64,000 nt of DNA. Origin: an uncultured Bacilli bacterium. Lineage in GTDB: Bacteria > Bacillota_I > Bacilli_A > RF39 > UBA660. The notes under the pieces were generated by a model that saw only the letters and a program-made list of their open reading frames with translations, was not told the origin of the DNA and made no database searches. The stretch covers positions 136,966-200,965 of the forward strand of contig CAKOLL010000002.1 in NCBI GenBank assembly GCA_934096295.1. Reading direction: 5' to 3'. Shown here one piece after another: positions 11,223-50,808 of this stretch (position 1 is its first letter; each line of letters opens with the position of its first letter). The translations under genes and the position numbers were made by a program.

Positions 11223-12494
11223 GTGAAAAAGCGTTATATAATATCAATTTTGGTGTTTTTAGTATTAAGTGTATTAATAAGTAATAATATTGCTAAGTCA
11301 TATATAGAAAAAAATAATAGTTTAAATAAAAAGTCAAATTCTAATAAAATATCGATTATGTTAGAAACAGATGAAGCTACTGGAGAATATAAAATGTCAA
11401 CAGAAAATAGTTGGCCAACCGAAGGATATATTTTCAATGCCGAATTATCAAAATGCGAAAATAATTCAATGATATCTTGGGATAATGATAAAAATGCTGT
11501 AATATTTCAAGGCCGAGTAACAGATAAGTGCTATATATATTTTGATAAATACGTAGCACCAACAATGACCCTTGTTGAATATGTTTTGGCACAATATACT
11601 GGTGTGCAAGGAGAAAACAATATGTATTATCATACTTCAAGTTTAGCAAATGGTGCTAGTGACAATTCTTATAGATATGCTGGGTCTAGTGATAGTGTAA
11701 ATAATTTTGTATGTTATGGTTCAACTGAAACTCCATGTCCAACGGATAATTTATATCGCATCATCGGAGTATTCGGCGATAATTACCATGGTGTGAGTGG
11801 ACAACAATTAGTAAAATTAATCAAATATGATTATGCAAATACTAATTTACTTGGAACTAATGGTACTTATAACAATTCCATGAATGCCGGAACAACTTAT
11901 AAAGGAAGTTTATCGACAATCTATACATATCGTTGGAATAATTATGCTAGTTCAAATACATGGAGTGCAAGCTTGCTAAATAAAACAAATTTAAATACGA
12001 ACTTCATAAATAATATAGGTGATATGTGGGCAAATAAAATTGCAACTATAGCATGGAAAGTCGGAGGTAATACAGTTGAAAAAATAAGAGAAGCAAAATC
12101 ATCACTAGCATATACCAATGAACTAATAAGTCCCGCAGCAAGTACTACCGAGAGTGCCAAAATAGGACTAATGTATGTAACTGATTATTATTATGCCGCA
12201 AGCTCAAGTGCATGGACATTAATAGGTTTTAATTCCGACTTAACAAATGATTATAGAAAAGCCATAAGTAATAATTGGATGTATATGGGCTGGAATGAAT
12301 GGGCAATAACTCGTCGTTCAGACATTGCTAATTCAACTTATTATGCATTCGAGATACATACTGATGGTAGCATTTGGGTTATGAATGTGACCAACATTTA
12401 CGATGCAATCAGGCCATCTTTCTTTCTATATTCTTCAATTATGTATAAATCAGGAACAGGAACCATGAGTGATCCAATAATTTTGGAAATATAA
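11223..12494 (+). CDS. secreted/surface protein, paralog family copy A (unknown function)
   Basis: N-terminal hydrophobic signal/anchor; shares blocks with 17051 and 49624 ORFs: SWPTEGY, DNSYRYAG, CxGxxxxPCPTDNLYRIIG, LIKYDYA, TWSxSLLNKTNLNTNFINNIG, WKVGGNT, AKIGLMYVxDY, NNWMYMG, AIRPSFF, KSGTGTxSDPI. Confidence 0.7.
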   Translation: MKKRYIISILVFLVLSVLISNNIAKSYIEKNNSLNKKSNSNKISIMLETDEATGEYKMSTENSWPTEGYIFNAELSKCENNSMISWDNDKNAVIFQGRVTDKCYIYFDKYVAPTMTLVEYVLAQYTGVQGENNMYYHTSSLANGASDNSYRYAGSSDSVNNFVCYGSTETPCPTDNLYRIIGVFGDNYHGVSGQQLVKLIKYDYANTNLLGTNGTYNNSMNAGTTYKGSLSTIYTYRWNNYASSNTWSASLLNKTNLNTNFINNIGDMWANKIATIAWKVGGNTVEKIREAKSSLAYTNELISPAASTTESAKIGLMYVTDYYYAASSSAWTLIGFNSDLTNDYRKAISNNWMYMGWNEWAITRRSDIANSTYYAFEIHTDGSIWVMNVTNIYDAIRPSFFLYSSIMYKSGTGTMSDPIILEI

Positions 12495-12567
12495 TTTGTC
12501 AAAGCCAATAATTGGCTTTTTAATTTGTAATATATTAACCATAATAACTATAGATAGGTGATTTAAA

Positions 12568-13539
12568 TTGAAGAAGTTAAAAATATTATTAATAAGTTGG
12601 TTATTATTACCAATTAATGTGTTTGCATATTCTAATTACATCATACCAGGTGGAGAAACTTTAGGTATTGAGGTAAATAGTAAAGGCGTAATGGTGATAG
12701 GTTTTTATCAAATAAATGGTAAATTTAATAAAGGGGTGCCAGCTATAAAAGCCGGAGATTATATTGTTAAAATAAATGATGTTTTAGTAAATACAATTGA
12801 TGAACTTACTAAAGAGATTGAAGCAAATGTTAGTGCTGGAGAAGTAAATGTAGAACTTAGAAGAGATGGAAAAGTTAAGACAAGCAAATTAGAATTGGTT
12901 AAGGATGGAGATATTTATAAAACCGGTTTGTATGTTAAAAATAGTATAACAGGTACTGGTACATTAACATATATAGATCCTGAAACTAAAATATTCGGGG
13001 CGTTAGGTCATGAAATAGTAGAATCAAATACTAATAGTATCGTAGAAATAAAAGATGGAAGTATATTTAGAAATTATATAACTGGTATAGATAAAAGTAA
13101 AGTTGGATATGCTGGTAGTAAGAATGCTAAGTTTTATTATAATACCAAGTATGGAACTATAAATAAAAATACAAATGTAGGTATATATGGAATTTATGAT
13201 AGTATTTTACCTAATAAAGATAAATTAGAAGTAGCTAAAAAGGAAGAAATAAAGATAGGTAAAGCAAGTATTGCAACAGTGTTAAGTAAAGAAGATATTA
13301 AGTATTATGATATAGAAATAACTAAAATAGATGAATATGCTAAAGTTAAAAATATATCATTTAAGATAACTGATAAGGAATTACTTGATAAAACTGGGGG
13401 AGTAGTGCAAGGAATGAGTGGTTCGCCGATTATGCAAAATGGTAAAATTATTGGAGCCGTAACTCATGTTATTATTGATAATCCTACGACTGGATATGGG
13501 TTATTTATAACAACTATGCTTGAAGAAGGAGAAAAATAG
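12568..13539 (+). CDS. spoIVB: SpoIVB-like serine peptidase (S55) with PDZ domain
   Basis: Signal peptide; PDZ 'GDYIVKINDVLVNTIDEL'; catalytic region 'GGVVQGMSGSPIMQNGKIIGAVTHV' matches SpoIVB 'GMSGSP...GAVTHV'. Confidence 0.75.
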   Translation: MKKLKILLISWLLLPINVFAYSNYIIPGGETLGIEVNSKGVMVIGFYQINGKFNKGVPAIKAGDYIVKINDVLVNTIDELTKEIEANVSAGEVNVELRRDGKVKTSKLELVKDGDIYKTGLYVKNSITGTGTLTYIDPETKIFGALGHEIVESNTNSIVEIKDGSIFRNYITGIDKSKVGYAGSKNAKFYYNTKYGTINKNTNVGIYGIYDSILPNKDKLEVAKKEEIKIGKASIATVLSKEDIKYYDIEITKIDEYAKVKNISFKITDKELLDKTGGVVQGMSGSPIMQNGKIIGAVTHVIIDNPTTGYGLFITTMLEEGEK

Positions 13540-13586
13540 AGTGGAATCTATTTTTCTTTTGTGATATTATATTATTGGTGATAATC

Positions 13587-14408
13587 ATGAAAATATCAAT
13601 AAAAGATAATATAGATTTATATAGAAAAGTAGATGAATTAACTAATTTAAATACAGTACCTAAAGATTATTATAGAGATTTTAAAATATTAGATACATAT
13701 GTAAGAATATTTAATGAAGGCAATAAAAAAATTTTGATTTATGTTCATGGTGGTGGTTTTGTATCGGGAAATTTAAATACTCACGCTAATCTTTGTTATA
13801 AGTTAGCTAAAGATTTGAATGTATGTGTTATATCAATTGATTATAAATTAGCTCCAGAATATAAATTTCCTTATCAAATAAATGAGATAAATAAAGTTTG
13901 TGAAGAAATATTTAAATTAAGTAGTGATGTAGCTATAATGGGGGATTCTGCCGGGGCTAACTTAGCATTTTCAGTGGCAACTGTTAATAGAAAATTAAAA
14001 TTTAAAGAAATTATTATGGCATATCCCACAACTCAGACTGATTATACTAGTAAGACAAAATTTAAATCTGTAATAGAAAATAGTGGTAAAACGTTACTTA
14101 CTAAAGAATCTTTACGAGATTACTTTTCTTTATATTTAAAAAGTGATAAAGATTATAAGGATAAAAGAGTTAATTTACTTCGTAATGATTGGTTATTTGG
14201 AATGCCTTTAGTTACTATAATTACAGGAACTCATGATCCACTTCATGATGAGGGTTTTGCTTTAAAAGAAAAGTTAGATAGATTTTTAGTTAAAACTAGA
14301 TATTTAGATTTGATTGATGCACCGCATGGTTTTTTAACAAATATGTTAGAACATAAATATACAAATCAAGTAATAGAATTTTTAAAGGGAAGTGATTTTT
14401 TTGAGTAA
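13587..14408 (+). CDS. alpha/beta hydrolase fold-3 esterase/lipase (HSL-like)
   Basis: 'VHGGGFVSG' oxyanion HGGG motif and 'GDSAGANLA' nucleophile elbow. Confidence 0.7.
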   Translation: MKISIKDNIDLYRKVDELTNLNTVPKDYYRDFKILDTYVRIFNEGNKKILIYVHGGGFVSGNLNTHANLCYKLAKDLNVCVISIDYKLAPEYKFPYQINEINKVCEEIFKLSSDVAIMGDSAGANLAFSVATVNRKLKFKEIIMAYPTTQTDYTSKTKFKSVIENSGKTLLTKESLRDYFSLYLKSDKDYKDKRVNLLRNDWLFGMPLVTIITGTHDPLHDEGFALKEKLDRFLVKTRYLDLIDAPHGFLTNMLEHKYTNQVIEFLKGSDFFE

Positions 14409-15624
14409 ATGGTATCGTTTAGATAATGCTGCAAAAATCTTTCCTCCATCTAAAAGTAAGAAAGATCCAAAGACATTTAGATTTAGTGTAACATTATATG
14501 AAGAAGTAAAAGTGGATGTATTAAATAAAGCTTTAAAAGAAACTTTGGAAGAGTATCCAATATTTAAATCTATTTTAAAAAAGGGAATATTTTGGTATTA
14601 TCTTGAAGAAGTAGATAAAAAATATGAAGTAAAAATGGAAGATAAAAGTCCATGTTCTAAAATAAATCATAATAATTTATTTGAGGTATCAGTTTATAAA
14701 AATAGAATTAATTTAGAGGTTGATCATGCCCTAACTGATGGAACTGGTACACTTACGTTCTTAAAAAGTTTGGTAGCTAACTACTTAAATAAATTATATA
14801 ATATTAAAAATAATGAAGTAATAAATGAAGGTAGTATAAAAGAAATAAAAGAAGATGCTTTTAAAAAATATAAAGATAGTAATTTTAAGAAAGTATTAAA
14901 AAGTAAGAAAGCATATAGAATTAAAGATGAAAAATATATAGATAATAGACTTAAAGTAATCGAAGGTATTGTAAATATTGATGATATTAAAGTAAAAGCT
15001 AAAGAATTAGATTTAACAATTACAGAATATTTAACTAGTGTTTTAATTATGGCTATAGGTAGTGTTAAAAATAAAAGTAAAAAACCAATAGTTATTACAA
15101 TACCAGTTAATTTAAGAAAGTATTATCCAACCTACACAGTAAGAAATTTTTTTAGTGTAGTAAATATAGATTATATATATAATAATGATTCATTTGAGGA
15201 TATAGCAATGTATGTAAAGAAAATATTTAAAGAAAAGTTAGATAAAGAAAATATAAAAGATAAAATGAATAGTATGATAAAGTTAGAAGATATATTTATA
15301 GTTAGATTAATACCTGTTTTTATAAAAGACTTTGTTTTAAAAATAGCATGTAATATTGAAAATAAATATCAAACTATGACTTTATCTAATATAGGTATTA
15401 TTAATATGCCGGAAGTTTATAATAAATATATAGATTATTTTAGTGTATTTACAAGTACATCAAAAATACAAATGTGTATGTGTTCTTATAAAGATAAAAT
15501 GGTTATTAGTTTTTCATCTAAGTTTGTAAATAGTGAAATAGAAAAATATTTCTTTAAGTTTTTAAGTAATGGTGGAATAGATGTAATAATAAATACTAAT
15601 GATTATGGTGATTATGATGAATAA
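14392..15624 (+). CDS. hypothetical protein with condensation/acyltransferase-like HxxxDG motif
   Basis: 'EVDHALTDGTG' resembles the HHxxxDG acyltransferase motif; otherwise unrecognised. Confidence 0.3.
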   Translation: MIFLSKWYRLDNAAKIFPPSKSKKDPKTFRFSVTLYEEVKVDVLNKALKETLEEYPIFKSILKKGIFWYYLEEVDKKYEVKMEDKSPCSKINHNNLFEVSVYKNRINLEVDHALTDGTGTLTFLKSLVANYLNKLYNIKNNEVINEGSIKEIKEDAFKKYKDSNFKKVLKSKKAYRIKDEKYIDNRLKVIEGIVNIDDIKVKAKELDLTITEYLTSVLIMAIGSVKNKSKKPIVITIPVNLRKYYPTYTVRNFFSVVNIDYIYNNDSFEDIAMYVKKIFKEKLDKENIKDKMNSMIKLEDIFIVRLIPVFIKDFVLKIACNIENKYQTMTLSNIGIINMPEVYNKYIDYFSVFTSTSKIQMCMCSYKDKMVISFSSKFVNSEIEKYFFKFLSNGGIDVIINTNDYGDYDE

Positions 15625-16276
15625 ATGTAATAAGTGTAATGTTTTTATAAATACAAAAACAAGTAAATGTCCTTTATGTGGATGTAATATTAAAAATAAT
15701 GATGGAATAAATGTATTTCCCCATATTAATTATTTAGATAAAAAATATCATTTGATGAAGAAAATATTATTATTCTTATCTTTATGTGGAATATTTATTT
15801 CTTTATATATTAATTATTCTATAACTCATACCCTAAGTTGGTCATATTTTGTAGTTTTAGGTATTATTACTTTTTGGATTACTTTACTTGTTTCTTTAAA
15901 TAGTCATAAAAATTTAATAAAAATGTTATTTTTAGAAATGATTATTTTAATTGGTTTATCACTAATCTGGGATTATTCAACTGGTTTTAAGTTATGGAGT
16001 ATTAATTATTTATTGCCATTTATTTGTGTTTTATATTTAGTTGGAATATTTATTATAAAATTATTTATGAAAAGATTAGAGAGTGAATTTGTTTTTTATG
16101 CAAGTGTTGCATCACTTATTGGACTTATACCGGGCATATTAATTTTATTTGATAAATTATATGTTAAATTTCCAAGTTATATTTGTTCAATATTTAGTAT
16201 GGTAATGTTAATGTATTTATTTGTATTTAATAAAAAAATTGTTAAGGACGAATTAGAAAAAAGATTTCATATTTAA
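15599..16276 (+). CDS. membrane protein with N-terminal zinc-ribbon (CxxC...CxxC) and ~5 TM helices
   Basis: 'CNKCNVF...CPLCGC' followed by long hydrophobic stretches. Confidence 0.45.
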   Translation: MIMVIMMNKCNKCNVFINTKTSKCPLCGCNIKNNDGINVFPHINYLDKKYHLMKKILLFLSLCGIFISLYINYSITHTLSWSYFVVLGIITFWITLLVSLNSHKNLIKMLFLEMIILIGLSLIWDYSTGFKLWSINYLLPFICVLYLVGIFIIKLFMKRLESEFVFYASVASLIGLIPGILILFDKLYVKFPSYICSIFSMVMLMYLFVFNKKIVKDELEKRFHI

Positions 16277-16313
16277 TAAATTTATGATATACTTTTAGTA
16301 GAGGTAGATAGTT

Positions 16314-16775
16314 ATGGATATAAGTATAAAGTTAGATGATTATAAATTAAATGTTAGAACTTGTGCATTTATTAAATGTGGGGATGAAATATTACTTTGT
16401 GAACATAAAGATAAAGATTACTATAGTTTACCAGGGGGACATGTTAAAATGGGGGAAGATAGTAAATTTGCTTTATTACGCGAATTAAAAGAAGAATTAA
16501 ATTATGATTTGCATGAAAATGATTTAAGGATTGTAAGATGTATAGAAAATTTCTTTACTTATAATAATGAAAAAATACATGAGTATTTATTTGTTTATTT
16601 AATTGATTTAGATAAGTCTTTATATAATGGAGATTTTAAGAATTTAGAAAATGATAGTATAACTATGAATTGGGTTAAAAAAGATGCATTTATATTATTT
16701 AATGTAGAACCTGGAGTAGTAAAGGGAATACTTAGTAATCCAAATGTAGAACATATTATATTAAAAGATATTTGA
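16314..16775 (+). CDS. NUDIX hydrolase
   Basis: Nudix box 'GGHVKMGEDSKFALLRELKEELN'. Confidence 0.8.
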   Translation: MDISIKLDDYKLNVRTCAFIKCGDEILLCEHKDKDYYSLPGGHVKMGEDSKFALLRELKEELNYDLHENDLRIVRCIENFFTYNNEKIHEYLFVYLIDLDKSLYNGDFKNLENDSITMNWVKKDAFILFNVEPGVVKGILSNPNVEHIILKDI

Positions 16776-16777
16776 TT

Positions 16778-16917
16778 AAAAAAGCGGTGATTCCGACCAT
16801 AACAGGAACTGAAAAAAGCGGTGATTCCGACCATAACAGGAACTGAAAAAAGCGGTGATTCCAACCAAAATAGGAACTGAAAAAAGTGGCGATTCCGGCC
16901 ATGACAGGAACTTAAAA
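16778..16917. repeat. tandem direct repeat, 4 x 34 bp (aaaaaagcggtgattccgaccataacaggaactg, last two copies degenerate)
   Basis: Read directly; lies between Nudix stop and terminator hairpin (3'-UTR position). Confidence 0.9.
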
Positions 16918-16950
16918 ATGTAACTAGAGAGCACACTCTAGTTTTTATAT
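16918..16950 (+). terminator. rho-independent terminator (gtaactagag-agcaca-ctctagttttt)
   Basis: 8-bp perfect stem + T-run; same palindrome arms recur at 22402-22443 after obg. Confidence 0.6.
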
Positions 16951-17050
16951 TAAAAAAAATGCAAATAAAACTAAATATTTTTAAAATAGACTTGAACTAA
17001 ATTTAAATTTAATTTATAATTTAATTAGTAGACTAAAGGAGATTTTTCTT

Positions 17051-18607
17051 ATGAATAAAAAAACAAGAATAATTATTTTATCGATACTTGCTGTGTTAAT
17101 TGTTATTGCTTTATCAGTGGGATTAACTACAGCTTTTATGAAACCTGTAGAACAAGGTGGTAATTTAACTGAAGTTGCATTATCTAGTTGTGCAAAGATT
17201 AAGTTAACTAGTACTAGTTCTGTTAATCTTTCTAATTCATATCCAATGAGTAGAAATAAAGGATTGCAAACAACTCCTTATTCTTTTACTGTTACTAGTT
17301 ATTGTGATACATATGTAGGTTTTAGTTTATATATTGCTACATTAAGTACAAATACATTAGATGCTTCAAATATTCACTATATTTTAACATATAAAGGTAG
17401 TAAAGAAACTATAGTAGAAGGTATATTATCTAGTGCTATGAATGGAGTAAGTGATTTTAGTGATTCAGAAAAAACTGAATTAAATACTGGGTTAAAAGGC
17501 ACTTATGGTAGTATTTATAAAATTCATAATGAATCTGTAGCATTAAAAGGTAGTAAAGAATATGATTTATATTTGTATGTTGATGAAAATGTAACAAATA
17601 CTACGATGGGAAAAACATTTAGTGCAGGTGTTGCAGTTAAATCTTATGATAGAGAAAAAATTGGTTTAGAAATATGTAATAGTGGTCAAAATTTAAAAGA
17701 ATGTGTTATTTCATATGCAAATTTAGGTAGTAATGTTTCAAAAATATATTATCATGATTCAACACTAACAAATGGAGCAGGGGACAATAGCTATAGATAT
17801 GCAGGACCAAGTGATGAAGTAAATAATTTTGTGTGTTTTGGAACAAATGAGAGTCCATGTCCAACAGATAATTTATATCGTATTATCGGAGTAATAGATG
17901 ATAAAGTGAAATTAATCAAATATGATTATGCAACAAGTACATTACTTGGAACAGATGGTGATTATTCACAAAATGCCGAAGAAGCAGGAATGCCAACAAA
18001 TCATTATAAAGGAACAAAAGAAATGTCAGACATCGGAGTATATTATTGGAATTATAAGGCTACAAACAAAGCTACAAATACATGGAGTACAAGTTTATTA
18101 AATAAAACAAATTTAAATACAAACTTTATAAATAATATTGGAACAGAATGGTCAAATAAGATAGCAACAACGATATGGAAAGTAGGAGGAAATACAAATG
18201 CAAAAATAAGAAATGTAGTTCCATCAGTAGCATACCAAAATGAAATAGTAAATCCGGTTCCAGGCCAATATTCAACAACAGGAGAAACAGAATATGAAGC
18301 CAAAATAGGATTAATGTATGTATCGGATTATGGATTTGCAGCAAGTCCAGAATCATGGACAACAATAATGGGTGATTATCATAAAGTTGTAAATAATAAT
18401 TGGATGTACATGGGAGCTTGGGAATGGACTATTTCCCGTCGTGCGGACCGTTCGGACATTGCTTTCGTTGTAGGCCGTGGTGGTTCCGTGAGCGACGACT
18501 TCGTGGACATCGGCATCTTTGCGGTTCGGTCGTCCTTCAATCTCGAGTCTTCTGTGACTTATGTCTCTGGGTCTGGACTTAGATTTGATCCGATTGTAAT
18601 AAATTAA
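17051..18607 (+). CDS. secreted/surface protein, paralog family copy B (longer N-terminal region; GC-rich recoded 3' end)
   Basis: Signal/anchor helix; same conserved blocks as copy A (DNSYRYAG, PCPTDNLYRIIG, LIKYDYA, TWSTSLLNKTNLNTNFINNIG, WKVGGNT, AKIGLMYVSDYGFAAS, NNNWMYMG). Confidence 0.7.
   Translation: MNKKTRIIILSILAVLIVIALSVGLTTAFMKPVEQGGNLTEVALSSCAKIKLTSTSSVNLSNSYPMSRNKGLQTTPYSFTVTSYCDTYVGFSLYIATLSTNTLDASNIHYILTYKGSKETIVEGILSSAMNGVSDFSDSEKTELNTGLKGTYGSIYKIHNESVALKGSKEYDLYLYVDENVTNTTMGKTFSAGVAVKSYDREKIGLEICNSGQNLKECVISYANLGSNVSKIYYHDSTLTNGAGDNSYRYAGPSDEVNNFVCFGTNESPCPTDNLYRIIGVIDDKVKLIKYDYATSTLLGTDGDYSQNAEEAGMPTNHYKGTKEMSDIGVYYWNYKATNKATNTWSTSLLNKTNLNTNFINNIGTEWSNKIATTIWKVGGNTNAKIRNVVPSVAYQNEIVNPVPGQYSTTGETEYEAKIGLMYVSDYGFAASPESWTTIMGDYHKVVNNNWMYMGAWEWTISRRADRSDIAFVVGRGGSVSDDFVDIGIFAVRSSFNLESSVTYVSGSGLRFDPIVIN
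18432..18582 (+). other. ~150-bp GC-rich (~55% GC) compositional island inside the 3' end of paralog B CDS
   Basis: tcccgtcgtgcggaccgttcggacattgctttcgttgtaggccgtggtggttccgtgagcgacgacttcgtggacatcggcatctttgcggttcggtcgtcc... uses CGT/GCG/GGC/GAC codons absent from surrounding AT-rich code; still in frame and still homologous to tails of copies A and C. Confidence 0.85.
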
Positions 18608-18641
18608 TTTGTAATAATGTAAAAATAACGGAGGAATGAAT

Positions 18642-19079
18642 ATGCCAAGTAAATATTTACCAATTGGTAGTGTTGTTAAATTAAAAGGTAATGATAAAAA
18701 GATAATGATTATAGGTTATTATGGGTTAGAATATGATAATTCTGTAAAAATATATGATTACATGGGATGTAGTTATCCAGAAGGATTATTAATTAAAAAT
18801 AATAACTATTACTTTGACCATGATAATATTACATCGGTAGTATTTTATGGTTATTTAGATTCATCTTTTAATAGTCTTAACTCTAATTTATTAGACCAAA
18901 GGGATGTTGAAAGTTTAGATACAGTTGATGAAGATAAAAAAACTGATATTCCTTTTGTGGATATAAAGTTAGATAATTTAGAAGAATTAAGTAAAGATGA
19001 TAATAGTAAAGTAGAAAATATTGTAGATGTTGAAATACCACATTATAAATTTGATGAGAATGGTATTATAATAAACTAA
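18642..19079 (+). CDS. DUF4176-like small protein
   Basis: N-terminus 'KYLPIGSVVKLKGNDKKIMIIGY' matches the characteristic LPxGSVV start of DUF4176 proteins. Confidence 0.45.
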   Translation: MPSKYLPIGSVVKLKGNDKKIMIIGYYGLEYDNSVKIYDYMGCSYPEGLLIKNNNYYFDHDNITSVVFYGYLDSSFNSLNSNLLDQRDVESLDTVDEDKKTDIPFVDIKLDNLEELSKDDNSKVENIVDVEIPHYKFDENGIIIN

Positions 19080-19142
19080 AGGAGAGTAAAATCTCTTTTA
19101 TTTTTCAATTAAATATAGTAAAATAACTGTGTGGTGATGGAA

Positions 19143-19859
19143 ATGAAAACTGTTTTTATATCTGGAGCTTCTCGAGGACTTGGGGCAAGTATTGCCAGAG
19201 TTTTTGCAAGTAATAAATATAATGTTATTATAAATTATAATAAAAGTGAATGGGAAGCAAATAGACTAAAAGAAGCATTAGAAAGTGAGTATAATATTAA
19301 TTGTTATGTATATAAGTGTGATGTATCAAATGAAGAAGAAGTTAAAGTAATGTTTGATAAAATTAAAAATGAAATTGGTAATATTGATTGTGTAGTTAAT
19401 AATGCAGGGATTGCAATAGATAATAGTTTTAGTGATAAAAGTGGTAATGAGTTTATGAATGTAATTAGTGTTAATCTTCTTGGAACATTTTTAGTAAGTA
19501 AATATTGTCTTGATGTTTTAAAAAGAGGAAATATAATTAATATTGCAAGTAATAATGTTTATACTGGTAGTTATATTGAAAGTATTGATTATGACGCTTC
19601 AAAGGCTGGGGTTATTAGCCTTACACATACTTTAGCAAAGTATTTAGCTCCGAATATTCGAGTTAATGCAGTTGCACCAGGTTGGATTTTAACTGATATG
19701 ACTGAGTCTCTTCAAGAAAAATTTAAATCTAGTGAAGAAGAAAAAATATTGCTAGGTAGATTTGGCAATCCAGAAGAAATAGCGGATGCTGTATATTTTT
19801 TAGCGAATAATCTATATGTAAATGATTGTATTTTAAGAATAGATGGAGGTATTAAATGA
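19143..19859 (+). CDS. short-chain dehydrogenase/reductase, 3-oxoacyl-ACP reductase-like
   Basis: 'VFISGASRGLGASIA' Rossmann TGxxxGxG, 'NNAG', catalytic 'YDASKAG' (YxxxK). Confidence 0.75.
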   Translation: MKTVFISGASRGLGASIARVFASNKYNVIINYNKSEWEANRLKEALESEYNINCYVYKCDVSNEEEVKVMFDKIKNEIGNIDCVVNNAGIAIDNSFSDKSGNEFMNVISVNLLGTFLVSKYCLDVLKRGNIINIASNNVYTGSYIESIDYDASKAGVISLTHTLAKYLAPNIRVNAVAPGWILTDMTESLQEKFKSSEEEKILLGRFGNPEEIADAVYFLANNLYVNDCILRIDGGIK

Positions 19860-21070: not shown

Positions 21071-21114
21071 ATATAAATATTAAAATATGATAAAATGTTT
21101 AGGAGGTGAATCTT

Positions 21115-22380: not shown

Positions 22381-22401
22381 GACATCATCTATTTTTAAAC
22401 C

Positions 22402-23685: not shown

Positions 23686-24255
23686 ATGGAAATAGTTAGA
23701 AAGACGATTTTAAATGATGATGTGTATTTAAGACAAGTTTCTCAAACTGTTGATTTTAATGATACGACATATAAAGAAGAAATTGAATTGCTAAAGAAAT
23801 TTTGTAATAAAACTGAATGTTTCGCTTTAGCAGCAGTTCAAATTGGTATACCAAAAAGAATAATTTACTTAAAAAATACAACACTTAATGTACCTCTTGA
23901 GAATATAAGTTATAACGAATAAAAAATTTTAATAAATCCACAGGTTATTTTTAAAAGAGGATGTACTAAATATTGGGAAGCATGTTTAAGTTGTTTAGAC
24001 TATATGGGGCTAGTAAAAGGACCTTATGAAATGAAAATTAAATATTATGATGAAAATGGTAATGAACATATTGAATATTTTGTGGGATTTGAAACTACTG
24101 TTTTATCCCGCGAACTGGACCATCTTGATGGTATTTTGCATATGGATGTAGCAGAAGAGGTTTTAGTTATGCCTAAATTAGAAAGAAAAGAGTTTAGAAA
24201 AACTCACCCTTATGAAATAATTTCTAAAATAGGTAATTATGATAATTATAAATAG
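23686..24255 (+). pseudogene. def: peptide deformylase paralog, degenerate, interrupted by in-frame TAA at 23920-23922
   Basis: ORFs 23686-23922 and 24004-24255 are in the same frame; joined translation gives Def motifs in order: 'FALAAVQIG' (GxGLAAxQ), 'EACLSC' (EGCLS), 'RELDHLDG' (HExxH with first His lost). Confidence 0.7.
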
Positions 24256-32887: not shown

Positions 32888-32955
32888 GAAAAATCTTATA
32901 TATTTTTTATTTTGATAAGAAAAGTTGCTTAAATATTGTTGAAATATCGGCTCTT

Positions 32956-33040
32956 CGAAATCTAGTGGGGAGCTAAAATAACTCCTCATCGAAATTTGGT
33001 GGGGAGTTTTTATATAAAAGCTTCGAAATCTGGTGGGGAG
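32956..33040. repeat. three 17-bp direct repeats cgaaatYTRGTGGGGAG spaced 34 bp (iteron-like)
   Basis: cgaaatctagtggggag (32956), cgaaatttggtggggag (32990), cgaaatctggtggggag (33024) read directly between queA and Rpn-family gene. Confidence 0.85.
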
Positions 33041-33255
33041 ATGATTATGGTGTTTTATCATCTCTTTTTATATGTAATAGTGAATAAGAAAAAGAAAGGA
33101 TGATAATAACATAAGTAAGTAATAAAAAGTTAGAAAATAATACTTAAAATAATAATTTTTGATAAAAATAAAACTAGTTCGACAAGAAGAAACAAATTTT
33201 TCATTCTGATTGTGCTAAGATAGAAAATGTTTCTTTAGAAATGGAGGTGGTAGGC

Positions 33256-39478: not shown

Positions 39479-39522
39479 AAAAGTTAATCCTCGTGTTATA
39501 ATAAGTCATGAGGTTTTGAAGT

Positions 39523-42072: not shown

Positions 42073-42073
42073 T

Positions 42074-43798: not shown

Positions 43799-43983
43799 AT
43801 TAGTAACCTATGGTATTTTGCTATAGGTTTTTTTGTAAAAAATGTGTATTTCTTATAACAGTTATACGTAAACAAATGTAAAGCTGGTAACTTATTCATG
43901 TAACCTTTTGACTTGTTTTGTCGAATCTATTGCGGGAATAAATTTTCTTTGTATAATAGACAACCAAGAAAGGAGGAAATCAG

Positions 43984-44973
43984 ATGATTAACATAAAAGA
44001 AATGCCTTCGAGAGATTCAATTATAAAAAATATTTTGACATCTACGGATGCTGGCCTTAATTATTTAGCAATGATAGTTTGTAAGGTTTTAGGGTTTTCA
44101 TATGAAGATTTTACTTTTTCTTTGATTCATCCTGATGTAAGTGTTAATGAAAACGTTGTTAATAGTGAACTAGATTTAGCAATACAAAATAATGATGTAA
44201 TAGTTAACATTGAAATAAATAGTTCAAAGGGAAGTAGAATAGAAAGAAAAAATAATAATTATATCTGTCAATTAATATTAAGGCAAACAAAAACATCTTC
44301 AGACTATACAAGTAAGTATAAGAAAGTTTACCAAATAAACTTAAATACTTATGGTGTAACCAAAGATAAGAGATTCGTAGTAATAAGTAAGATATTAGAT
44401 GTAGAAAATCATGAAGAAATACATCCAATGTTTGAAATATACGATATAAATCTTGCAAAAATCTTAGATAAAGATTATACTATAGTTAAAGAAGACAAAG
44501 AGTCTTTAGAAAAATTACTTTATTTACTTATATGTAATGATAAAGAAAAGATGAATAAAGTATATGATGGAGATGATTTTATGGCTAAGATAATTCGAGA
44601 AGTAAATGCACAGACAGATGAATTTGATAAATTGCTTTTTTATAACAAAGAAATATTGGATGATAAATACGCAATAGAAGAAGCAAAAGAAGAAGCAAGA
44701 AAAGAAGCATTGATTGAAGGCCGCGAGCTTGGATTAAATGAAGGCCGCGAGCTTGGATTAAATGAAGGCCGCGAGCTTGGATTAAATGAAGGCCGTGAGC
44801 TTGGATTAAATGAAGGCCGTGAGCTAGGTTTAAATGAAGGGCGTAACGAAAGTATCAAAGAAACCGTGATTGCGATGTTAAAGAAAAAATATCCTATCGA
44901 AGATATAAGTGATATCACTAAGTTATCTATCGAAGAAATAGAAAAAATAAAGAATAGCAATATGCTATCCTAA
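43984..44973 (+). CDS. Rpn/YhgA-family PD-(D/E)xK nuclease, copy 2, with C-terminal (EGRELGLN)x5 repeat tract
   Basis: Same architecture as 33256 ORF; C-terminal 'EGRELGLNEGRELGLN...' then 'ITKLSIEEIEKIK' tail. Confidence 0.65.
   Translation: MINIKEMPSRDSIIKNILTSTDAGLNYLAMIVCKVLGFSYEDFTFSLIHPDVSVNENVVNSELDLAIQNNDVIVNIEINSSKGSRIERKNNNYICQLILRQTKTSSDYTSKYKKVYQINLNTYGVTKDKRFVVISKILDVENHEEIHPMFEIYDINLAKILDKDYTIVKEDKESLEKLLYLLICNDKEKMNKVYDGDDFMAKIIREVNAQTDEFDKLLFYNKEILDDKYAIEEAKEEARKEALIEGRELGLNEGRELGLNEGRELGLNEGRELGLNEGRELGLNEGRNESIKETVIAMLKKKYPIEDISDITKLSIEEIEKIKNSNMLS
44716..44842 (+). repeat. 5.x tandem copies of 24-bp unit gaaggccgcgagcttggattaaat inside Rpn copy-2 CDS (GC-rich vs surroundings)
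   Basis: Read directly; encodes EGRELGLN repeats. Confidence 0.9.
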
Positions 44974-45759
44974 TGCAACATCGAAAATCATCATAATAAG
45001 AAATCCAAAAATTGTGAATAAGGCCATTAGGTCTTTTTTCTTATTGGTTTGACTTTCTGGTATTAATTCTTGAACTACAACATAAATCATGGCACCACCA
45101 GCAAAGGCAAGTAATATAGGCAATAATATTTTTATTTTTATTACTAAAATGGCCCCAATTACTGCTGATATTGGTTCAACGATTCCACTTAGAACTCCAA
45201 ATAAAAATGCTTTTGATCTTTTCATTCCTTCACGTCTTAGAGGCAATGAAACGGCTGAACCTTCTGGAAAATTTTGAATTCCTATCCCAATTGCTAACAT
45301 AACTGCAGACGTAAGTGTAGCACCATCTAAATTATAGAAAACCGAACCAAATGCAACTCCGATTGCCATTCCTTCTGGTATGTTATGAAGCGTAATGGAA
45401 AAAATTAACATTAAGCTTCTTTTTATACTATTGGAATTACTTTTTTTCTTTGTTAATTTAGCAAATATTTTATCTCCGGTGTATAATAATAATCCTCCGG
45501 ATAAAACTCCAAGTGATACAATTAACCATGGAGTTAGTTCTAAATTTTCAGCCATTTCTAAGGCTGGAGATAATAGACTCCAGAATGTTGCAGCAAGCAT
45601 TACACCTGCTGATAAACCTAACATTGCATCCATAGTTGTTTTGTTCATTTTTTTAAATATAAAAACAACTGAGGCTCCTAAAGATGTTATTGCCCATGTG
45701 AATAGTGTTGCAATTAATGCTTGCACTGGATAGGCTAAATTTAAATACCAATTAATCAT
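44965..45759 (-). CDS. zupT: ZIP-family metal (zinc) transporter ZupT-like
   Basis: 'HNIPEGMAIGVAF' and 'QNFPEGSAVSLPL' metal-binding motifs in TM IV/V. Confidence 0.8.
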   Translation of the reverse strand: MINWYLNLAYPVQALIATLFTWAITSLGASVVFIFKKMNKTTMDAMLGLSAGVMLAATFWSLLSPALEMAENLELTPWLIVSLGVLSGGLLLYTGDKIFAKLTKKKSNSNSIKRSLMLIFSITLHNIPEGMAIGVAFGSVFYNLDGATLTSAVMLAIGIGIQNFPEGSAVSLPLRREGMKRSKAFLFGVLSGIVEPISAVIGAILVIKIKILLPILLAFAGGAMIYVVVQELIPESQTNKKKDLMALFTIFGFLIMMIFDVALG

Positions 45760-45876
45760 AATCGCTCCTTTTTATATCTAGTGTATTGTATGAATAAAAA
45801 TTTTTGGTGTGATTTTACTTTACAAATTTGTCTACAAACGTTATAATATTTTTTGAATTTAGGAGGTGCTTTTTTA

Positions 45877-48141
45877 ATGTTTAATATACCTGTCATTTTA
45901 CTTAAAAATTTGGTTATACTTCCTAATCAAGAGATTAAATTAGAGTTAAATAATGTAATAAGTGGAAAAGCTATAAATGAAGCTAGTAATAACTTTAAAG
46001 GGGAAATTCTTGTTATTGCTCCGATAGATGCTTTAGAAGAAGAACCTAGTGTTGATGATTTACCTAAAGTTGGAGTTATTGCTAAAATAAAAAATAAAAT
46101 AGATAATGATGGGGTTGTTGAAGTTAAATTAAGAGGTCTTAGAAGAGTAGCAGTTAATAAATATTATCAAGAAAAAAATAATGATGTTTTATTTAGTGAG
46201 GTTATGTATATTGATTTGCCTGCTTTAGTTTCAGAAGAAGAAACTGCTATTTTAAAAAAGCTAGTTGAGGTATTAAAAAAATATATTGATTTATCTAAGA
46301 ATGTTTCAAATGATATATTAAATTTTGTTAGTAATAATAAAGATTTAAATAAAATAACAGATGCCATTACATCTTTTTTACCATTTAATATTTCTAAAAA
46401 GTTAGAATATATGCAAGAAATTAATCCTATTAAAAGAGCTAAATCTTTAATTAAAGATATGAATGAGGAAATAAAAGGCGTTTTAATAGATAATGAACTT
46501 GAAGATATGGTTGATGAATCACTTCAAAAAGATCAAAGAGAATTCATTTTGAAAGAAAAAATGAAAGTTTTAAAACGAGAACTTGGAGAAGATTCTTGGA
46601 AAAATGAAGAAGTTATTAATTTTAAAAACCAACTTGATAAATTAAAGATAGATAAAAAAATAAAAATGCATATTTCTCATGAGATAAATAAATATGAAAT
46701 AATGAATGAAGCTTCTCCGGAAGTAAGTGTTATGCATAATTATTTGGATTGGATTATTAATCTTCCTTGGAATAAATCAAAAAAAGAAAATAGTAATTTT
46801 GATAATGTTTATAAAGTGCTTAATAAGTCTCATTTTGGGATGGATAAAATTAAAACAAGAATTAGTGAATATGTGGCAATTAAAAACTTAAATAGAAATA
46901 TTAAAAGTCCAGTTATTTGTTTAGTTGGACCTCCAGGGGTTGGAAAAACTACGATTGCTATGTCGATTGCTAAAGCTTTAAATAGAGATTTTTATAAAAT
47001 AAGTGTTGGGGGATTAAATGATGCAACAGAATTGGTCGGAACAAGAAGGACATATTTAGCATCAGCTCCCGGTAAAATTATTCAAGGGTTGTATAAGTGT
47101 GGTAGTAATAATCCCTTAATTTTAATTGATGAAGTTGATAAAATGGTTAAAGATTATAAAGGAGATCCAGCTGCTACATTACTTGAAATTCTTGATTTTA
47201 ACCAAAATCAAATGTTTATTGATAATTATATTGAAGAACCTTTTGATTTGAGTGGTGTTTTATTTATTTTAACTGCCAATAATGTTTTGGATATACCTAA
47301 AACCATATTGGATAGAGTTGAGTTAATAGAACTTAACAGTTATACAGTATTTGAAAAGAAAGACATAGCTAAAGAGTATATGTTACCTAATATTTTATAT
47401 GAAAATATGGTTTATGATAGTAAAATAAAGTTTAGTGATGAATTGCTTTATTTTATAATAAATAATTATACTTTAGAATCTGGAGTTAGAGATTTAGAAA
47501 GAGTACTTTCTTCTTTAGCTAGAAAAATTACAATAAATAATGTTAAAGTTTTAAATGAAGAAAGAGTTGTTAAATTACTTGGACAACCTAAATATAATAA
47601 TGATTTTAATATAGAAGATGAGACTGGTGTTGTTAATACTTTAGCTGTTAGTAGTATTGGGGGTATTGTTTCCAAACTAGAGACTTTAGTATGTAAAGGA
47701 AATGGTAATTTAGTAGTTACAGGTAATGCTGGAGATTTATTAAAAGAAAGTATTAATGTTGTTTTAACAATGCTTAAAAGTAAATATAAGTATAGTTTTC
47801 ATAATGAAGATATTCATGTGCACTTTTTAGATGCCTCTTCTAAAAAAGATGGACCATCTGGAGGTCTTGCTCTAGGGGTTGCTCTTTGTAGCTTGAAAGA
47901 AAATAAAAAGATTCCTAGTAATATTGCTTTTACAGGAGAAATTTCTTTAAATGGGTATGTTTTAAAAATTGGAGGTATCAAGGAAAAACTAATTGCTGCA
48001 TATAATAAAAATATCAAAGTAGTGTATATGCCTAAGGATAATATTGAAGATTTAGAAAGTGTACCAAAAGTTATATTAGATAATATGGAGGTTATTCCTG
48101 TTAGTAATTTTAATGAGGTATATACAAAATTGTTTAAATAA
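45877..48141 (+). CDS. lon: ATP-dependent Lon protease
   Basis: LON N-domain 'MFNIPVILLKNLVILPNQEIKLEL', AAA+ 'GPPGVGKTT', S16 catalytic 'PKDGPSGG'. Confidence 0.9.
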   Translation: MFNIPVILLKNLVILPNQEIKLELNNVISGKAINEASNNFKGEILVIAPIDALEEEPSVDDLPKVGVIAKIKNKIDNDGVVEVKLRGLRRVAVNKYYQEKNNDVLFSEVMYIDLPALVSEEETAILKKLVEVLKKYIDLSKNVSNDILNFVSNNKDLNKITDAITSFLPFNISKKLEYMQEINPIKRAKSLIKDMNEEIKGVLIDNELEDMVDESLQKDQREFILKEKMKVLKRELGEDSWKNEEVINFKNQLDKLKIDKKIKMHISHEINKYEIMNEASPEVSVMHNYLDWIINLPWNKSKKENSNFDNVYKVLNKSHFGMDKIKTRISEYVAIKNLNRNIKSPVICLVGPPGVGKTTIAMSIAKALNRDFYKISVGGLNDATELVGTRRTYLASAPGKIIQGLYKCGSNNPLILIDEVDKMVKDYKGDPAATLLEILDFNQNQMFIDNYIEEPFDLSGVLFILTANNVLDIPKTILDRVELIELNSYTVFEKKDIAKEYMLPNILYENMVYDSKIKFSDELLYFIINNYTLESGVRDLERVLSSLARKITINNVKVLNEERVVKLLGQPKYNNDFNIEDETGVVNTLAVSSIGGIVSKLETLVCKGNGNLVVTGNAGDLLKESINVVLTMLKSKYKYSFHNEDIHVHFLDASSKKDGPSGGLALGVALCSLKENKKIPSNIAFTGEISLNGYVLKIGGIKEKLIAAYNKNIKVVYMPKDNIEDLESVPKVILDNMEVIPVSNFNEVYTKLFK

Positions 48142-48174
48142 GATATAATTAAAAAATGAAAGGGTAGTGAAAAA

Positions 48175-49545
48175 ATGAATACATTAGATATTTATAAAAA
48201 TATTAAGTATCTATCTCTTTTTAATGAGGTAAATAGAAATATTAATAAGATTACTATTGATACAAGAAAAGTTGTTGATGGTGATTGTTATATAGGAATT
48301 AAAGGGGATAAAAATGATGGTAATTTATTTTATATGGATGCTTTTAATAAAGGGGCTAGTTTAGTTATATTAGAGCATTTTGATATAAATGATGAAGTAA
48401 TGGATTATCTTGTTAAAAATAATAAAAGTATCTTAGTTGTAGAAGATACTAAAAAAGCATTAGGAGACTTAGCTAAATATAAAAGAAGTTTGTTTTTTAG
48501 TCCAGTAGTTGCTGTTACGGGGAGTGCGGGAAAAACTAGTACAAAAGATATGATATATAGTGTTTTAAAAGAAAAATATAATGCTCATAAAACTATTGGA
48601 AATCAAAATAATCATATTGGGTTACCTTTAACAATATTATCACTAGAAGAAGATAATGAGGTATTAGTTTTAGAAATGGGAATGAATCATTTAGGTGAAA
48701 TTTCTTATCTTACAAATATTGCTAAACCTGATGTTGCTGTTATTACTAATGTTGGTACAGCACATATTGGTAATCTTGGAAGTCGTGAAAATATTTTGAA
48801 GGCTAAACTTGAAATACTTGAAGGATTAAATCCAAATGGTGTTATTATTATTAATAATGATAATGATTTATTGCATGAATGGTATCTAAATAATAAGGGT
48901 AATTACAATATAATTACAATTGGTATTAATAATAATTCTTTATATATGGCAAATATTATAGAAAGAAATGAATGGTGGTCTACTTTTTCTTGTGATAATG
49001 AAATATATAAAGTACCTGTTGGTGGTGAACATTTCATTTATAATGCTTTGGCTGCAATAGCTGTTGGTAAGTATTTTAATGAAGGCGTAGATATAATTAA
49101 ACATGGTATATTGAATTTTGAGTTAAGTAGTAATAGAATGAGTATTATAAATAGTGGAAATATTACAATAATAGATGACTCATATAATGCAAATTTTGAT
49201 TCAATGAGTTATGCAATTAAATATATAGGTTCTTTAACTGGTAGAAATATTGCTGTTTTAGGTACTATGAGAGAACTTGGGGATTATACAGAAGATTTAC
49301 ATAAAAAAATTGGTAATTTAGTAGAAAAAGAAAAAATAGATATTTTAATTACAGTTGGAGAAGATTCAGATTTTATTAATGAAGGAGCAATAGATGCTGG
49401 ATTTAATAAAGATAATAGTTATCATTTTACAAATAATTTAGATGCTATTAATTTTATTAATTCAATAAAGTCTGATAATGATAATATTTTAGTCAAGGCA
49501 AGTAATTCATTAAACTTTAAAGAAATAGTAGAAAAAATAAAATAA
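48175..49545 (+). CDS. murF: UDP-N-acetylmuramoyl-tripeptide--D-alanyl-D-alanine ligase MurF
   Basis: 'VAVTGSAGKTSTKDM' P-loop, 'DDSYNAN' Mur ligase C-domain motif. Confidence 0.85.
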   Translation: MNTLDIYKNIKYLSLFNEVNRNINKITIDTRKVVDGDCYIGIKGDKNDGNLFYMDAFNKGASLVILEHFDINDEVMDYLVKNNKSILVVEDTKKALGDLAKYKRSLFFSPVVAVTGSAGKTSTKDMIYSVLKEKYNAHKTIGNQNNHIGLPLTILSLEEDNEVLVLEMGMNHLGEISYLTNIAKPDVAVITNVGTAHIGNLGSRENILKAKLEILEGLNPNGVIIINNDNDLLHEWYLNNKGNYNIITIGINNNSLYMANIIERNEWWSTFSCDNEIYKVPVGGEHFIYNALAAIAVGKYFNEGVDIIKHGILNFELSSNRMSIINSGNITIIDDSYNANFDSMSYAIKYIGSLTGRNIAVLGTMRELGDYTEDLHKKIGNLVEKEKIDILITVGEDSDFINEGAIDAGFNKDNSYHFTNNLDAINFINSIKSDNDNILVKASNSLNFKEIVEKIK

Positions 49546-49623
49546 TGCGTTAACACAACGCTTTTTTTATTGCATTTTTTTGGTATCATATTTTATATGA
49601 AATATAAAGAGGTGTGATATTTA

Positions 49624-50808
49624 ATGAAGAAAAAATATTTAGCGATGGTAATAATTGGTTTGTTTTTACTGACTTGTTCTTTAATTATTACACAAAGTGG
49701 TTTTGAAAAGGAGAATAATAAGGAAAATACAATATTAGAAGGTAGAATGTTAAGTTTAATGATTGAACAAACAGCTGGAGCTGGAGATTATAAGCCTGTA
49801 ACTCAAAGTAATTGGCCAACAGATGGATATAAGTATAATGCAGAGTTATCTGGTTGTGAAAATGATGGAAAATTAATGTGAGATGATGAAGAAAAAAAGG
49901 TTATTTTACAAGGAAATGTATCTGATAAATGTTATGTTTATTTTGATATTTATGAAGAGAAGGTTCTTCTTTCAGATTATGTAATATCACAATATACAGG
50001 AACACAAGGGGAAAATGGAATTTATTATCACAATGCCGGTTTAACTAATGGAGCAAAGGATGATTCATATCGTTATGCTGGAGCTAATCCAAATAATTAT
50101 GTGTGTTTTGGTAGCAATGATAGTACATGTCCGAATGATAATTTGTATAGAATTGTGAGTGTGAAGGATGGAAAAGTTAAGTTAATAAAATCAGATTATG
50201 CAAATAGTAATTTATTGGGTACTGATGGAGATTACGCTAATTCAGGAAACTTATATTCTTGGAATAAATACCCAGTAAATACATGGAGTGCTTGTTCGTT
50301 AAATAAAACAAATTTAAATATAAATTATATTAATAATATAGGTAGTGATTGGGCAAATAAAATAGCCGTTACAACATGGAAAGTTGGAGGAAATACTTGG
50401 GATAATATTTATTCTGTAACACCTTCGGTAGTATATCAAAATGAGATAACAAATCCAGATTCAACAGGTAGTACAGATAATGCTACAGAATATAGTGCAA
50501 AAATAGGTTTAATGTATATAAGTGATTATGGGTTTGCAGCAAGTCCAAGTGCATGGACACTGGCTATGAGTGCCTATAGTAATTCAACAGCTACAAGTAG
50601 TAATTGGTTATATAAAAATACGGCAGAATGGCCTATTTCTCGTACTTCAGATTTTACACGTGGTTCTTTCTTGATTCTTGCGGATGGTAGTGTTGGTGGT
50701 TATGGTACAAATAGTGCTTTTGCAATTCGCCCTGTTTTTAATTTTGAAGATTCTGTGGTATATAAATCAGGTTCTGGGACAAGTAGTGATCCAATTAGAA
50801 TAAATTAA
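49624..50808 (+). pseudogene. secreted/surface protein paralog family copy C, interrupted by single in-frame TGA (49879-49881) at conserved Trp position
   Basis: ORFs 49624-49881 and 50101-50808 are in one frame with no other stop between; copy A has 'MISWDNDK' where C has 'KLM*DDEEK'; downstream blocks (DDSYRYAG, CPNDNLYRIV, TWSACSLNKTNLNINYINNIG, WKVGGNT, AKIGLMYISDYGFAAS) intact. Confidence 0.75.

Follow-up and report, generated by a model that had tools for sequence, protein, structure and literature searches.

What do three similar genes of unnamed function encode in the chromosome of an uncultured gut bacterium, and how do they come to differ between strains? The question is raised by a stretch of 64,000 nucleotides (nt) from an uncultured member of the Bacilli (RF39; UBA660; GenBank assembly GCA_934096295.1, contig CAKOLL010000002.1, positions 136,966 to 200,965), hereafter the window, in which open reading frames (ORFs) at 11223-12494, 17051-18607 and 49624-50808 resemble one another and are referred to here as copies 1, 2 and 3. 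The answer proposed, to which we attach a probability of about 0.7, is that they belong to a large family of cell-surface, ligand-binding proteins of uncultured low-GC gut Bacilli, the tips of which bear the marks of a diversity-generating retroelement (DGR) and of recombination. Throughout, L-numbers denote the contigs or loci that were compared and P-numbers denote homologous proteins.

Paralogy and Setting of the Three Copies

Copy 1 matched copy 2 in BLASTP with 53% identity over 304 amino acids (aa; expectation value, E, 2e-93) and copy 3 with 47% identity over 428 aa (E 3e-111), and the mean column identity in a three-way alignment of the copies was 61%. A sequence-only reading of the window had proposed a paralogous family of three members at these coordinates and had quoted a series of collinear blocks in its support. 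Every one of those blocks is found in the three-way alignment, and the similarity is therefore neither low complexity nor chance, which agrees with the proposal. The same reading had described both ends of the proteins as variable and the tail of one copy as foreign. This is borne out at the N-terminus, where the first ~215 residues of copy 2 show no relationship to the N-terminal domain that copies 1 and 3 have, but not at the other end, as the extreme C-terminal strand with the SGSGT..DPI block is homologous in all three copies and is therefore not a different module. The C-terminal motif reads AIRPSF in copy 1, AVRSSF in copy 2 and AIRPVF in copy 3. Over its last ~170 nt, copy 2 is indeed foreign in composition, with a GC content of 55-58% versus 27% for the window, although the C-terminal strand itself has not been swapped.

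It had further been suggested that each copy sits at an operon boundary after a terminator. Terminator-like hairpins do precede copies 2 and 3 (Table 1), whereas none lies directly upstream of copy 1, where a divergent small ORF is situated. Promoter-like sites are present at 11155-11183 and 16992-17020. The 34-nt repeat upstream of copy 2 has four units in the window and three or four in contigs of the same species, and is thus a variable-number repeat. Past the stop codon of copy 2, a DUF4176 gene (18642-19079) starts after 34 nt and is probably co-transcribed with it.

Predicted Fold of the Conserved Core

The structure of copy 1 was modelled with AlphaFold2 (model ma6671e094647) from an alignment of 106 diverse homologues, the diversity of which came from a second search seeded with a 31%-identical relative. 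The model reached a predicted local distance difference test score (pLDDT) of 88.7 and a predicted template modelling score of 0.78, compared with an unusable model of pLDDT 48 from a shallow alignment of 42 close homologues. It consists of a helix (residues 3-32), a disordered linker (33-40), a beta-sandwich (~43-110) and a mixed alpha/beta domain (~112-423). The sole significant match that Foldseek returned from the PDB was 9qa6, the immunoglobulin A (IgA) peptidase of Thomasclavelia ramosa (E 2e-6, probability 1.00, 321 aligned columns), in which residues 31-322 constitute a DUF6273 domain (PMC12402451). Matches in BFVD at E 3e-6 to 1e-3 were phage DUF6273 proteins and one ‘Receptor Binding Protein’, with more than eight proteins named DUF6273 matching the model at E 4e-5 to 1e-3. 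In profile searches, 23 of the 106 aligned family members matched DUF6273 (PF19789) with E values up to 1 and as low as 4.9e-6, and two close homologues, one of them P0011, did so at 22.7 bits over profile positions 21-171 of 172, the gathering score of PF19789 being 23.5 bits. DUF6273 has been described as a C-type-lectin-like fold (PMC10743442; bioRxiv 10.1101/2024.10.15.618418). Because of this description and the matches to 9qa6 and to the DUF6273 proteins of BFVD, the core, for which the sequence-only reading could find no name, is in the model a divergent and extended DUF6273-like lectin fold.

Across the 106 sequences, 15 residues are invariant (C164, G166, C172, Y178, R179, K198, I200, K201, W238, W247, W269, E300, Y318, W352 and R397). 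The family shares with DUF6273, as known from the T. ramosa IgA peptidase and phage proteins, the fold, collinear sequence motifs and an association with surface proteins of gut Firmicutes. It differs in that the window proteins fall below the Pfam threshold and possess a core of ~300 aa that is extended on its N-terminal side by a further conserved part (YTG.QGEN.YYH...NGA.DNSYRYAG, C..G....CP.DNLYRI), and in that their domain is C-terminal, behind a predicted membrane anchor, whereas the reference domain is fused to a peptidase or a phage tail module. When the window proteins were searched against Pfam, NCBIfam and PHROGs, the only returns were a sub-threshold ‘SAR2788’ match (E 0.003) and a weak match to phrog_9958, the function of which is unknown. 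No Pfam match to the canonical Ca-dependent C-type lectins (Lectin_C) was obtained, and Foldseek matches to snake-venom and collectin domains were insignificant (E >2). The lectin-like domains DUF1566 and Lcl show a remote likeness of fold, with DUF1566 matches in BFVD at E 0.2-0.5, which is far weaker than the likeness to DUF6273 and is accompanied by no sequence match. The DUF1566 domain ends in a strand of the form ..VR(P/C)V.., similar to the end of the window core. A basic and hydrophobic stretch at the N-terminus points to secretion or membrane anchoring, and fn3, Big and PKD domains are present in relatives.

Position of the Variable Region and the Signature in Copy 2

Among close homologues, entropy peaks at residues 331-350 of copy 1 and, above all, at residues 361-397, which form the beta-hairpin just before the conserved R-P-x-F. 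In the phage DUF6273 proteins that have been published as DGR targets, the variable region likewise lies at the C-terminus of the domain, and the equivalent regions of copies 1-3 occupy this same place, at the C-terminus of their C-type-lectin-like domain. In 27 of 36 family genes, the 108 nt that precede RPxF are poor in adenine (a fraction of 0.13-0.27, versus 0.31-0.42 for whole genes), and adenine at third codon positions of the hairpin amounts to 12% in copy 3 and 19% in copy 1, versus 37%. Judged by adenine depletion together with differences at what would have been AAY codons (Y being C or T), the DGR pattern is present in copy 2, partial in copy 3, where differences occur at all codon positions, and weak in copy 1.

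In copy 2, adenine makes up 11% of the segment at about 18436-18545, versus 40% of the rest of the gene, and a 100-nt scan of the 64 kb identified 18411-18580 as the only plus-strand stretch with adenine at or below 14%. The third codon positions of the segment contain 3% A, 44% C and 33% T, versus 44% A and 3% C elsewhere in the gene. With the proportions of A and C reversed at third positions, the shift is one of synonymous codon choice and not of amino-acid content. A second allele of copy 2, otherwise identical through residue 440, is carried by the same-species contigs L026 and L027 and differs at 21 sites plus a 3-nt indel within 18436-18545. These differences are distributed 12/7/2 over codon positions 1/2/3, so that 19 of 21 fall in positions 1-2, and the variable codons have the form NNT or NNC (CGT/GAT, CGT/ATT, TCC/GTC, TTC/GGC, ATC/AAC and TTT/CGT). 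Just downstream of the segment the differences between alleles follow an ordinary pattern (8/7/14). Adenine-specific mutagenesis of AAY codons, the general mechanism of DGRs, yields such NNY codons (PMC6182149; PMC7826257).

L002 and L011 (CAG:460) contain the framework TGGACTATTTC(C/G)CG ... GT.CG.CCGTCCTT again, likewise with NNY codons that are GC-rich, and a comparably GC-rich and A-poor segment, ending in CGC CCG TCC TTC, is found in L010, from a metagenome-assembled genome (MAG) of rabbit origin. We infer from composition and allele pattern that the segment at 18437-18545 is a variable region written by a past or remote DGR and now static in the sampled strains.

Strain Differences in Copies 3 and 1

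Copy 3 is called as two ORFs, 49624-49881 (85 aa) and 50101-50808 (235 aa), which belong to one frame broken by a single in-frame TGA aligned with a nearly invariant Trp (W86 of copy 1). TGA ends 7 of the 46 long ORFs in the window, and the codon in copy 3 is therefore a real stop under the standard code. Genetic code 4, in which TGA encodes Trp, is out, given that copy 3 holds the sole internal TGA aligned to a conserved residue and that the metagenome contig L017, with the same murF-gene-dnaE order and an intact orthologue of 413 aa, has TGG at this codon. Four independent contigs (L043-L046) from different samples carry the TGA allele with 100% identity over 1355 nt, which makes it a circulating allele and not a sequencing error. 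One of the three genes had been suspected to be a pseudogene from sequence alone, and copy 3 does prove to be a genuine nonsense allele that is unchanged in four contigs and replaced by TGG in a near-identical strain.

Compared with L017, the flanks and the 5' two-fifths of copy 3 are 98-100% identical, whereas identity drops to 51-80%, with indels, over 50189-50731, with sharp boundaries near 50249 and 50727. Synonymous divergence (dS) is 0.02-0.03 in the murF flank and the 5' part of copy 3, with a ratio of nonsynonymous to synonymous divergence (dN/dS) of 0.16 for murF, and rises to 0.88 in the conserved part of the cassette, where dN/dS is 0.18. In the 96-nt hairpin, dS is 0.50 and dN/dS is 2.08, values that come from a small and saturated sample. 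The contrast between flank and cassette in identity, dS and dN/dS indicates that the putative ligand-binding half of copy 3 was replaced by recombination, as opposed to having decayed after the nonsense mutation. No close donor of the cassette was found among 390 retrieved proteins or the other copies in the window.

Copy 1 varies by presence and absence. The segment 10596-12500 is present in L024 and L026 and absent from L025, L027 and L028, all of the same species; in the latter three the response-regulator gene runs directly into spoIVB, with the junction at a shared terminator hairpin. A 93%-identical orthologue of copy 1 with a diverged signal region occurs in L018, preceded by another family gene and a helix-turn-helix (HTH) gene. 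Two small ORFs, at 10879-11088 (minus strand) and 10635-10874, share the copy 1 segment. The minus-strand ORF looks on reading like a ribbon-helix-helix protein and has no Pfam match; its equivalent in L018 is an HTH_XRE gene.

Family Size, Hosts and Neighborhoods

More than 7953 family matches, almost all unnamed, were obtained from a collection of 5.8 billion proteins, and among 50% clusters 4805 representatives matched at E up to 1e-3; some members contain two or three tandem cores. The hosts are MAGs of uncultured gut Bacilli (Hadza, Brazilian and rabbit), CAG:460, a ‘Mycoplasma sp.’ MAG and Candidatus Onthocola. The window itself has 27% GC and encodes SpoIVB and MurF, and its thymidylate synthase clusters at >=90% identity with the enzyme of Firmicutes bacterium CAG:460. 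A 441-kb metagenome contig in ENA is 99.97% identical to window positions 6314-26775, and several window proteins are unchanged there. One rabbit-gut MAG carries five family copies, and L006/L007 (rabbit-gut MAG contig CANQCI010000002.1) contain a tandem array of at least six family genes at ~2.1-kb spacing. A fixed scaffold, FWFITP.T...AF....G.V.T.LTT....ARPxF, is common to the hairpins of this array and is interspersed with variable positions, as if the genes were a multi-target set.

No gene neighborhood is conserved, the contexts of the homologues being different, and the retrieved sequence to the left of the window contains only housekeeping genes. No record matched the protein at the right end of the window. 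Thirteen family loci are in bacterial genome contigs versus one in IMG/VR. The latter, at L014 4398-5928 (UViG_3300045988_181655), is a frameshifted member with a GATYAYF-type N-terminus; it lies at the contig end, directly after a block of phage tail-collar, holin and M23 endolysin genes, and could be a prophage-border gene or moron.

Proposed Function and Origin of the Variation

In the proposed mechanism, the basic and hydrophobic N-terminal helix would export the protein and probably anchor it at the membrane. A spacer, namely the ~70-aa beta-sandwich of copies 1 and 3 or the ~190-aa module of copy 2, would raise the lectin-like domain above the wall, a role suggested by the architecture and by the Ig-like insertions in relatives. 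The ~300-aa C-type-lectin-like domain, a divergent branch of DUF6273, would then bind a ligand, and its last beta-hairpin, of ~36 residues before R-P-x-F, most likely sets the specificity and would form the ligand-binding face, by analogy with DGR targets of C-type-lectin fold. Candidate ligands are host glycans or mucus, immunoglobulin and other microbes, or the proteins may serve in defense against phage adsorption. The repertoire could change by DGR-type rewriting (the signature being in copy 2, with its author not found), by cassette recombination (copy 3), by gain and loss of whole genes (copy 1) and by inactivation through nonsense mutation (copy 3). With its tips rewritten, its cassettes swapped and its genes gained, lost or silenced, the family would behave as a strain-variable repertoire of surface lectin-like proteins. 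The sequence-only reading had suggested a diversifying surface, adhesin or receptor-binding family, and this gains support from the lectin-like fold, the hydrophobic N-terminal anchor, the expansion of the family, the focused variation and the turnover between strains.

A more far-reaching version, which we put forward only tentatively and would not bet on, holds that the whole family consists of chromosomal targets of a trans-acting DGR that is encoded at another place in the genome or by a phage, and is lost or silent in the lineage of the window. The variable regions would in that case be frozen, clear in copy 2 and progressively eroded in copy 3 and then copy 1, and diversification would be left to recombination, gene turnover and inactivation.

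DUF6273 proteins of C-type-lectin fold are already known, as is the fact that DGRs use them as targets. The window proteins are of the same fold class as DGR variable proteins such as Mtd from Bordetella phage BPP-1, the phage ‘tentaclins’ and other DUF6273 targets; they too have a C-terminal variable segment, and copy 2 is likewise depleted in adenine with allele differences in NNY codons. They differ from these proteins in that neither a cognate template repeat nor a reverse transcriptase or Avd was found for the window copies, and in that the segment of copy 2 does not vary among most of the strains sampled. They are, in addition, chromosomal, predicted to be membrane-anchored and present as multi-copy paralogues, and their genes also show cassette recombination, gain and loss, and nonsense mutation. 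The type V pili of Bacteroides (bioRxiv 10.1101/2024.11.15.621889) have tips diversified by DGRs and are comparable in being gut-bacterial candidates for surface adhesins with the tip as the target; they differ in phylum, protein family and display, the window proteins having a simple N-terminal anchor and no linked pilus genes. What is new in the branch represented by the window is that it escapes Pfam, that it combines an extended core with a predicted membrane anchor, that it has undergone a huge expansion in gut Bacilli, and that it carries a variable-region signature without a linked retroelement.

The family appears to be among the most expanded surface-protein families of a little-known group of uncultured gut Bacilli with small genomes, and is nevertheless annotated as ‘hypothetical protein’. 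Its placement as DUF6273- and C-type-lectin-like leads to the hypothesis that its members serve as adhesins or receptors that vary between strains and bind host glycans, mucus, immunoglobulin or phage, and singles out the ~36-residue hairpin as the candidate site of specificity. A DGR-type signature with no retroelement nearby provides an example in which orphan or remote DGR targets and their fate can be studied, and a trans-acting DGR, if true, would make the family a natural series of DGR targets after the loss of the DGR. The strain-level polymorphisms may point to selection at the cell surface, and the presence or absence of copy 1, the cassette swap, the nonsense allele and the number of upstream repeats could be used as strain markers.

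Weighing of Alternative Explanations

A number of results weigh against a DGR-diversified family of surface lectins. None of the three copies has a Pfam match at E up to 1, DUF6273 included, and sequence searches of the PDB, with a single sequence as well as with the family profile, gave spurious matches or none. The IgA peptidase's N-terminal domain had no measurable effect on catalysis, and DUF6273 itself has no known function. Searches of the window, of 46 retrieved loci and of IMG/VR (four patterns, 0 matches) revealed no template repeat, and no repeats pairing with the 3' ends of copies 1-3 were found in the window besides the paralogues themselves. A crude motif scan for a reverse transcriptase was negative in the window and the loci, and the Pfam annotation of the genes in L024 and L041, contigs that correspond to about window positions 1-26,800 and 9 kb to the left, included no RVT domain, the rest of the window being covered by the motif scan only. 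Copy 1 shows a weak avoidance of adenine only, and its hairpin is 97% identical to that of its closest orthologue. Nine other contigs from several samples share the window-type segment of copy 2 without any difference, and two alleles were seen in all, so that there is no sign of ongoing diversification. In L026, lastly, high GC persists in the allele up to the stop codon, past which REP-like repeats and the beginning of an ISL3-like element follow, an arrangement that could point to horizontal import.

Such an import, by transfer or gene conversion from a GC-richer homologue and with ordinary positive selection thereafter, is the main competing account of the GC-rich, A-poor tail of copy 2. 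It draws on the same lack of a template repeat and reverse transcriptase, on the static segment and on the L026 allele, in which high GC extends beyond the hairpin to abut ISL3-like sequence, as well as on copy 3, where recombination is seen to replace cassettes of this kind. We nevertheless consider it unlikely. Against it stand a depletion that is specific to adenine, which makes up 3% of third positions while T makes up 33%, and differences between alleles that keep the third base as C or T and fall at 19 of 21 sites in positions 1-2, as expected from AAY to NNY and the reverse of the 8/7/14 of the adjoining tail. The same bounded framework moreover occurs in several species with AT-rich genomes, and the segment lies exactly where DGRs act in DUF6273 proteins.

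Two further accounts appear very improbable. The genes might be remnants of prophages or morons, that is, phage receptor-binding or tail-fiber proteins left in the chromosome, as could be suggested by the phage DUF6273 and receptor-binding proteins that are the best structural neighbors in BFVD, by the homologue beside a phage lysis module in L014 and by the weak phrog_9958 match. Copies 1-3 and homologues in other genomes, however, stand alone among housekeeping genes (spoIVB, NUDIX, murF-dnaE, proS and rpsT) with no phage genes near, they begin with hydrophobic anchors that are foreign to tail-fiber proteins, and the single IMG/VR locus compares with 13 loci in bacterial contigs and thousands of homologous proteins. 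Just as improbable is a core that is an enzyme, either formylglycine-generating-enzyme-like or glycan-modifying, with variation arising from relaxed constraint. The C-type-lectin-like fold is also used by some enzymes, the invariant residues include two Cys (C164 and C172) and several Trp, Tyr and Arg, and no function is known for DUF6273; yet no enzyme family was matched in Pfam, NCBIfam or the PDB, and an anchor, Ig-like spacers and a terminal lectin-like domain, with tandem-core variants, are typical of adhesins. Nor is constraint relaxed, as the variation is sharply localized and the remainder of the copy 3 cassette has a dN/dS of 0.18.

N-Terminal Module of Copy 2

The module with which copy 2 begins is kept in the full-length homologues P0180 (60%), P0165 and P0145, and also occurs in stand-alone proteins of ~200 aa or fused to fn3 repeats, whilst other family members have GATYAYF or VTFAYF N-termini. 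Behind the hydrophobic helix, the motif ..T.AFMKP.. is reminiscent of signal peptides of the SipW type; we take this to be a resemblance only, supported by no model. An assignment of the module to a TasA/camelysin-SipW unit was rejected, since neither Pfam nor NCBIfam gave a match at E up to 1 and the GATYAYF N-terminus of L014 is not similar to it. The idea of a fiber tip, prompted by the stand-alone homologues, was set aside as speculation that no operon supports. The surroundings of the stand-alone genes are unrelated housekeeping genes. In L019-L021 they lie between obg and ruvA (7001-7603 in L019), with a small protein that has a weak match to prepilin N-methylation (N_methyl) just past ruvA; the window has the same obg-ruvA-N_methyl order (L024 14802-17350), without a module of the copy 2 type.

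Coordinates of Features

Table 1. Features of the three gene copies and their surroundings, in window coordinates.
Feature	Coordinates	Strand	Basis
Copy 1, intact gene of 423 aa	11223..12494	+	ORF; AlphaFold2 model; Foldseek matches to 9qa6 and phage DUF6273 models
Presence/absence segment of 1.9 kb with copy 1, an ORF of 53 aa and a minus-strand ORF of 64-69 aa	10596..12500	.	Same-species contigs
Terminator-like hairpin 3' of copy 1, also in strains without copy 1	12501..12519	+	
34-nt tandem repeat AAAAAAGCGGTGATTCCGACCATAACAGGAACTG, 4.1 units, between NUDIX gene and copy 2 promoter	16778..16918	+	
Terminator-like hairpin 5' of copy 2	16922..16943	+	
Copy 2, intact gene of 518 aa	17051..18607	+	ORF; full-length homologues P0180, P0145, P0165
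N-terminal module of copy 2 (residues 1-215): hydrophobic helix, T-x-A-F-M-K-P motif, domain of ~170 aa	17051..17695	+	
Variable-region-like segment of copy 2, A-poor, GC-rich, NNY-type allele differences	18437..18545	+	Composition; allele comparison
Terminator-like hairpin between murF and copy 3	49547..49561	+	
Copy 3, frame of 394 codons with one nonsense codon, split gene or pseudogene	49624..50808	+	ORFs; translation; intact 413-aa orthologue in L017
TGA in place of conserved Trp codon TGG	49879..49881	+	TGG in L017; TGA allele in L043-L046
Putative recombinant cassette, C-terminal half of copy 3 lectin-like domain	50249..50727	+	Identity and dS versus L017
Hypervariable hairpin segment of copy 3	50632..50727	+	51% identity to L017; dN/dS 2.08 (small sample, saturated)
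Terminator-like hairpin 3' of copy 3	50827..50842	+	

Other Observations in the Window

The sequence 3' of copy 2 in L026 and L027, which carry the alternative allele, differs from that of the window. In L026, that allele is succeeded (12257-12661) by three copies of a REP-like repeat, TCGAAATCTGGTGGGGAG, and by the beginning of an ISL3-like transposase, and a 150-nt stretch of the window (32943-33091) is 95% identical to this region. Housekeeping genes, too, are recombination mosaics between strains: dnaE at 51032-51431 is 85-93% identical to L017 versus 98-100% in its flanks, and the histidine kinase and response regulator genes at 8524-10595 are 93.5% identical to L025 versus 99.6% to the right of copy 1. 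Further left, an AMP-binding gene differs in length between strains (572 vs 668 aa). Peptide deformylase is present as two short genes of 78 and 74 aa, both matching Pep_deformylase, at window ~23686-24255 (L024 17373-17942), which may represent a def gene that is split or has decayed. An in-frame tandem repeat with a unit of 24 nt and ~6 units (LNEGRELG-like) is located at 44685-44867, inside the ORF at 43984-44973, and two adjacent tRNA genes at 58764-58928 are the only Rfam matches in the window.

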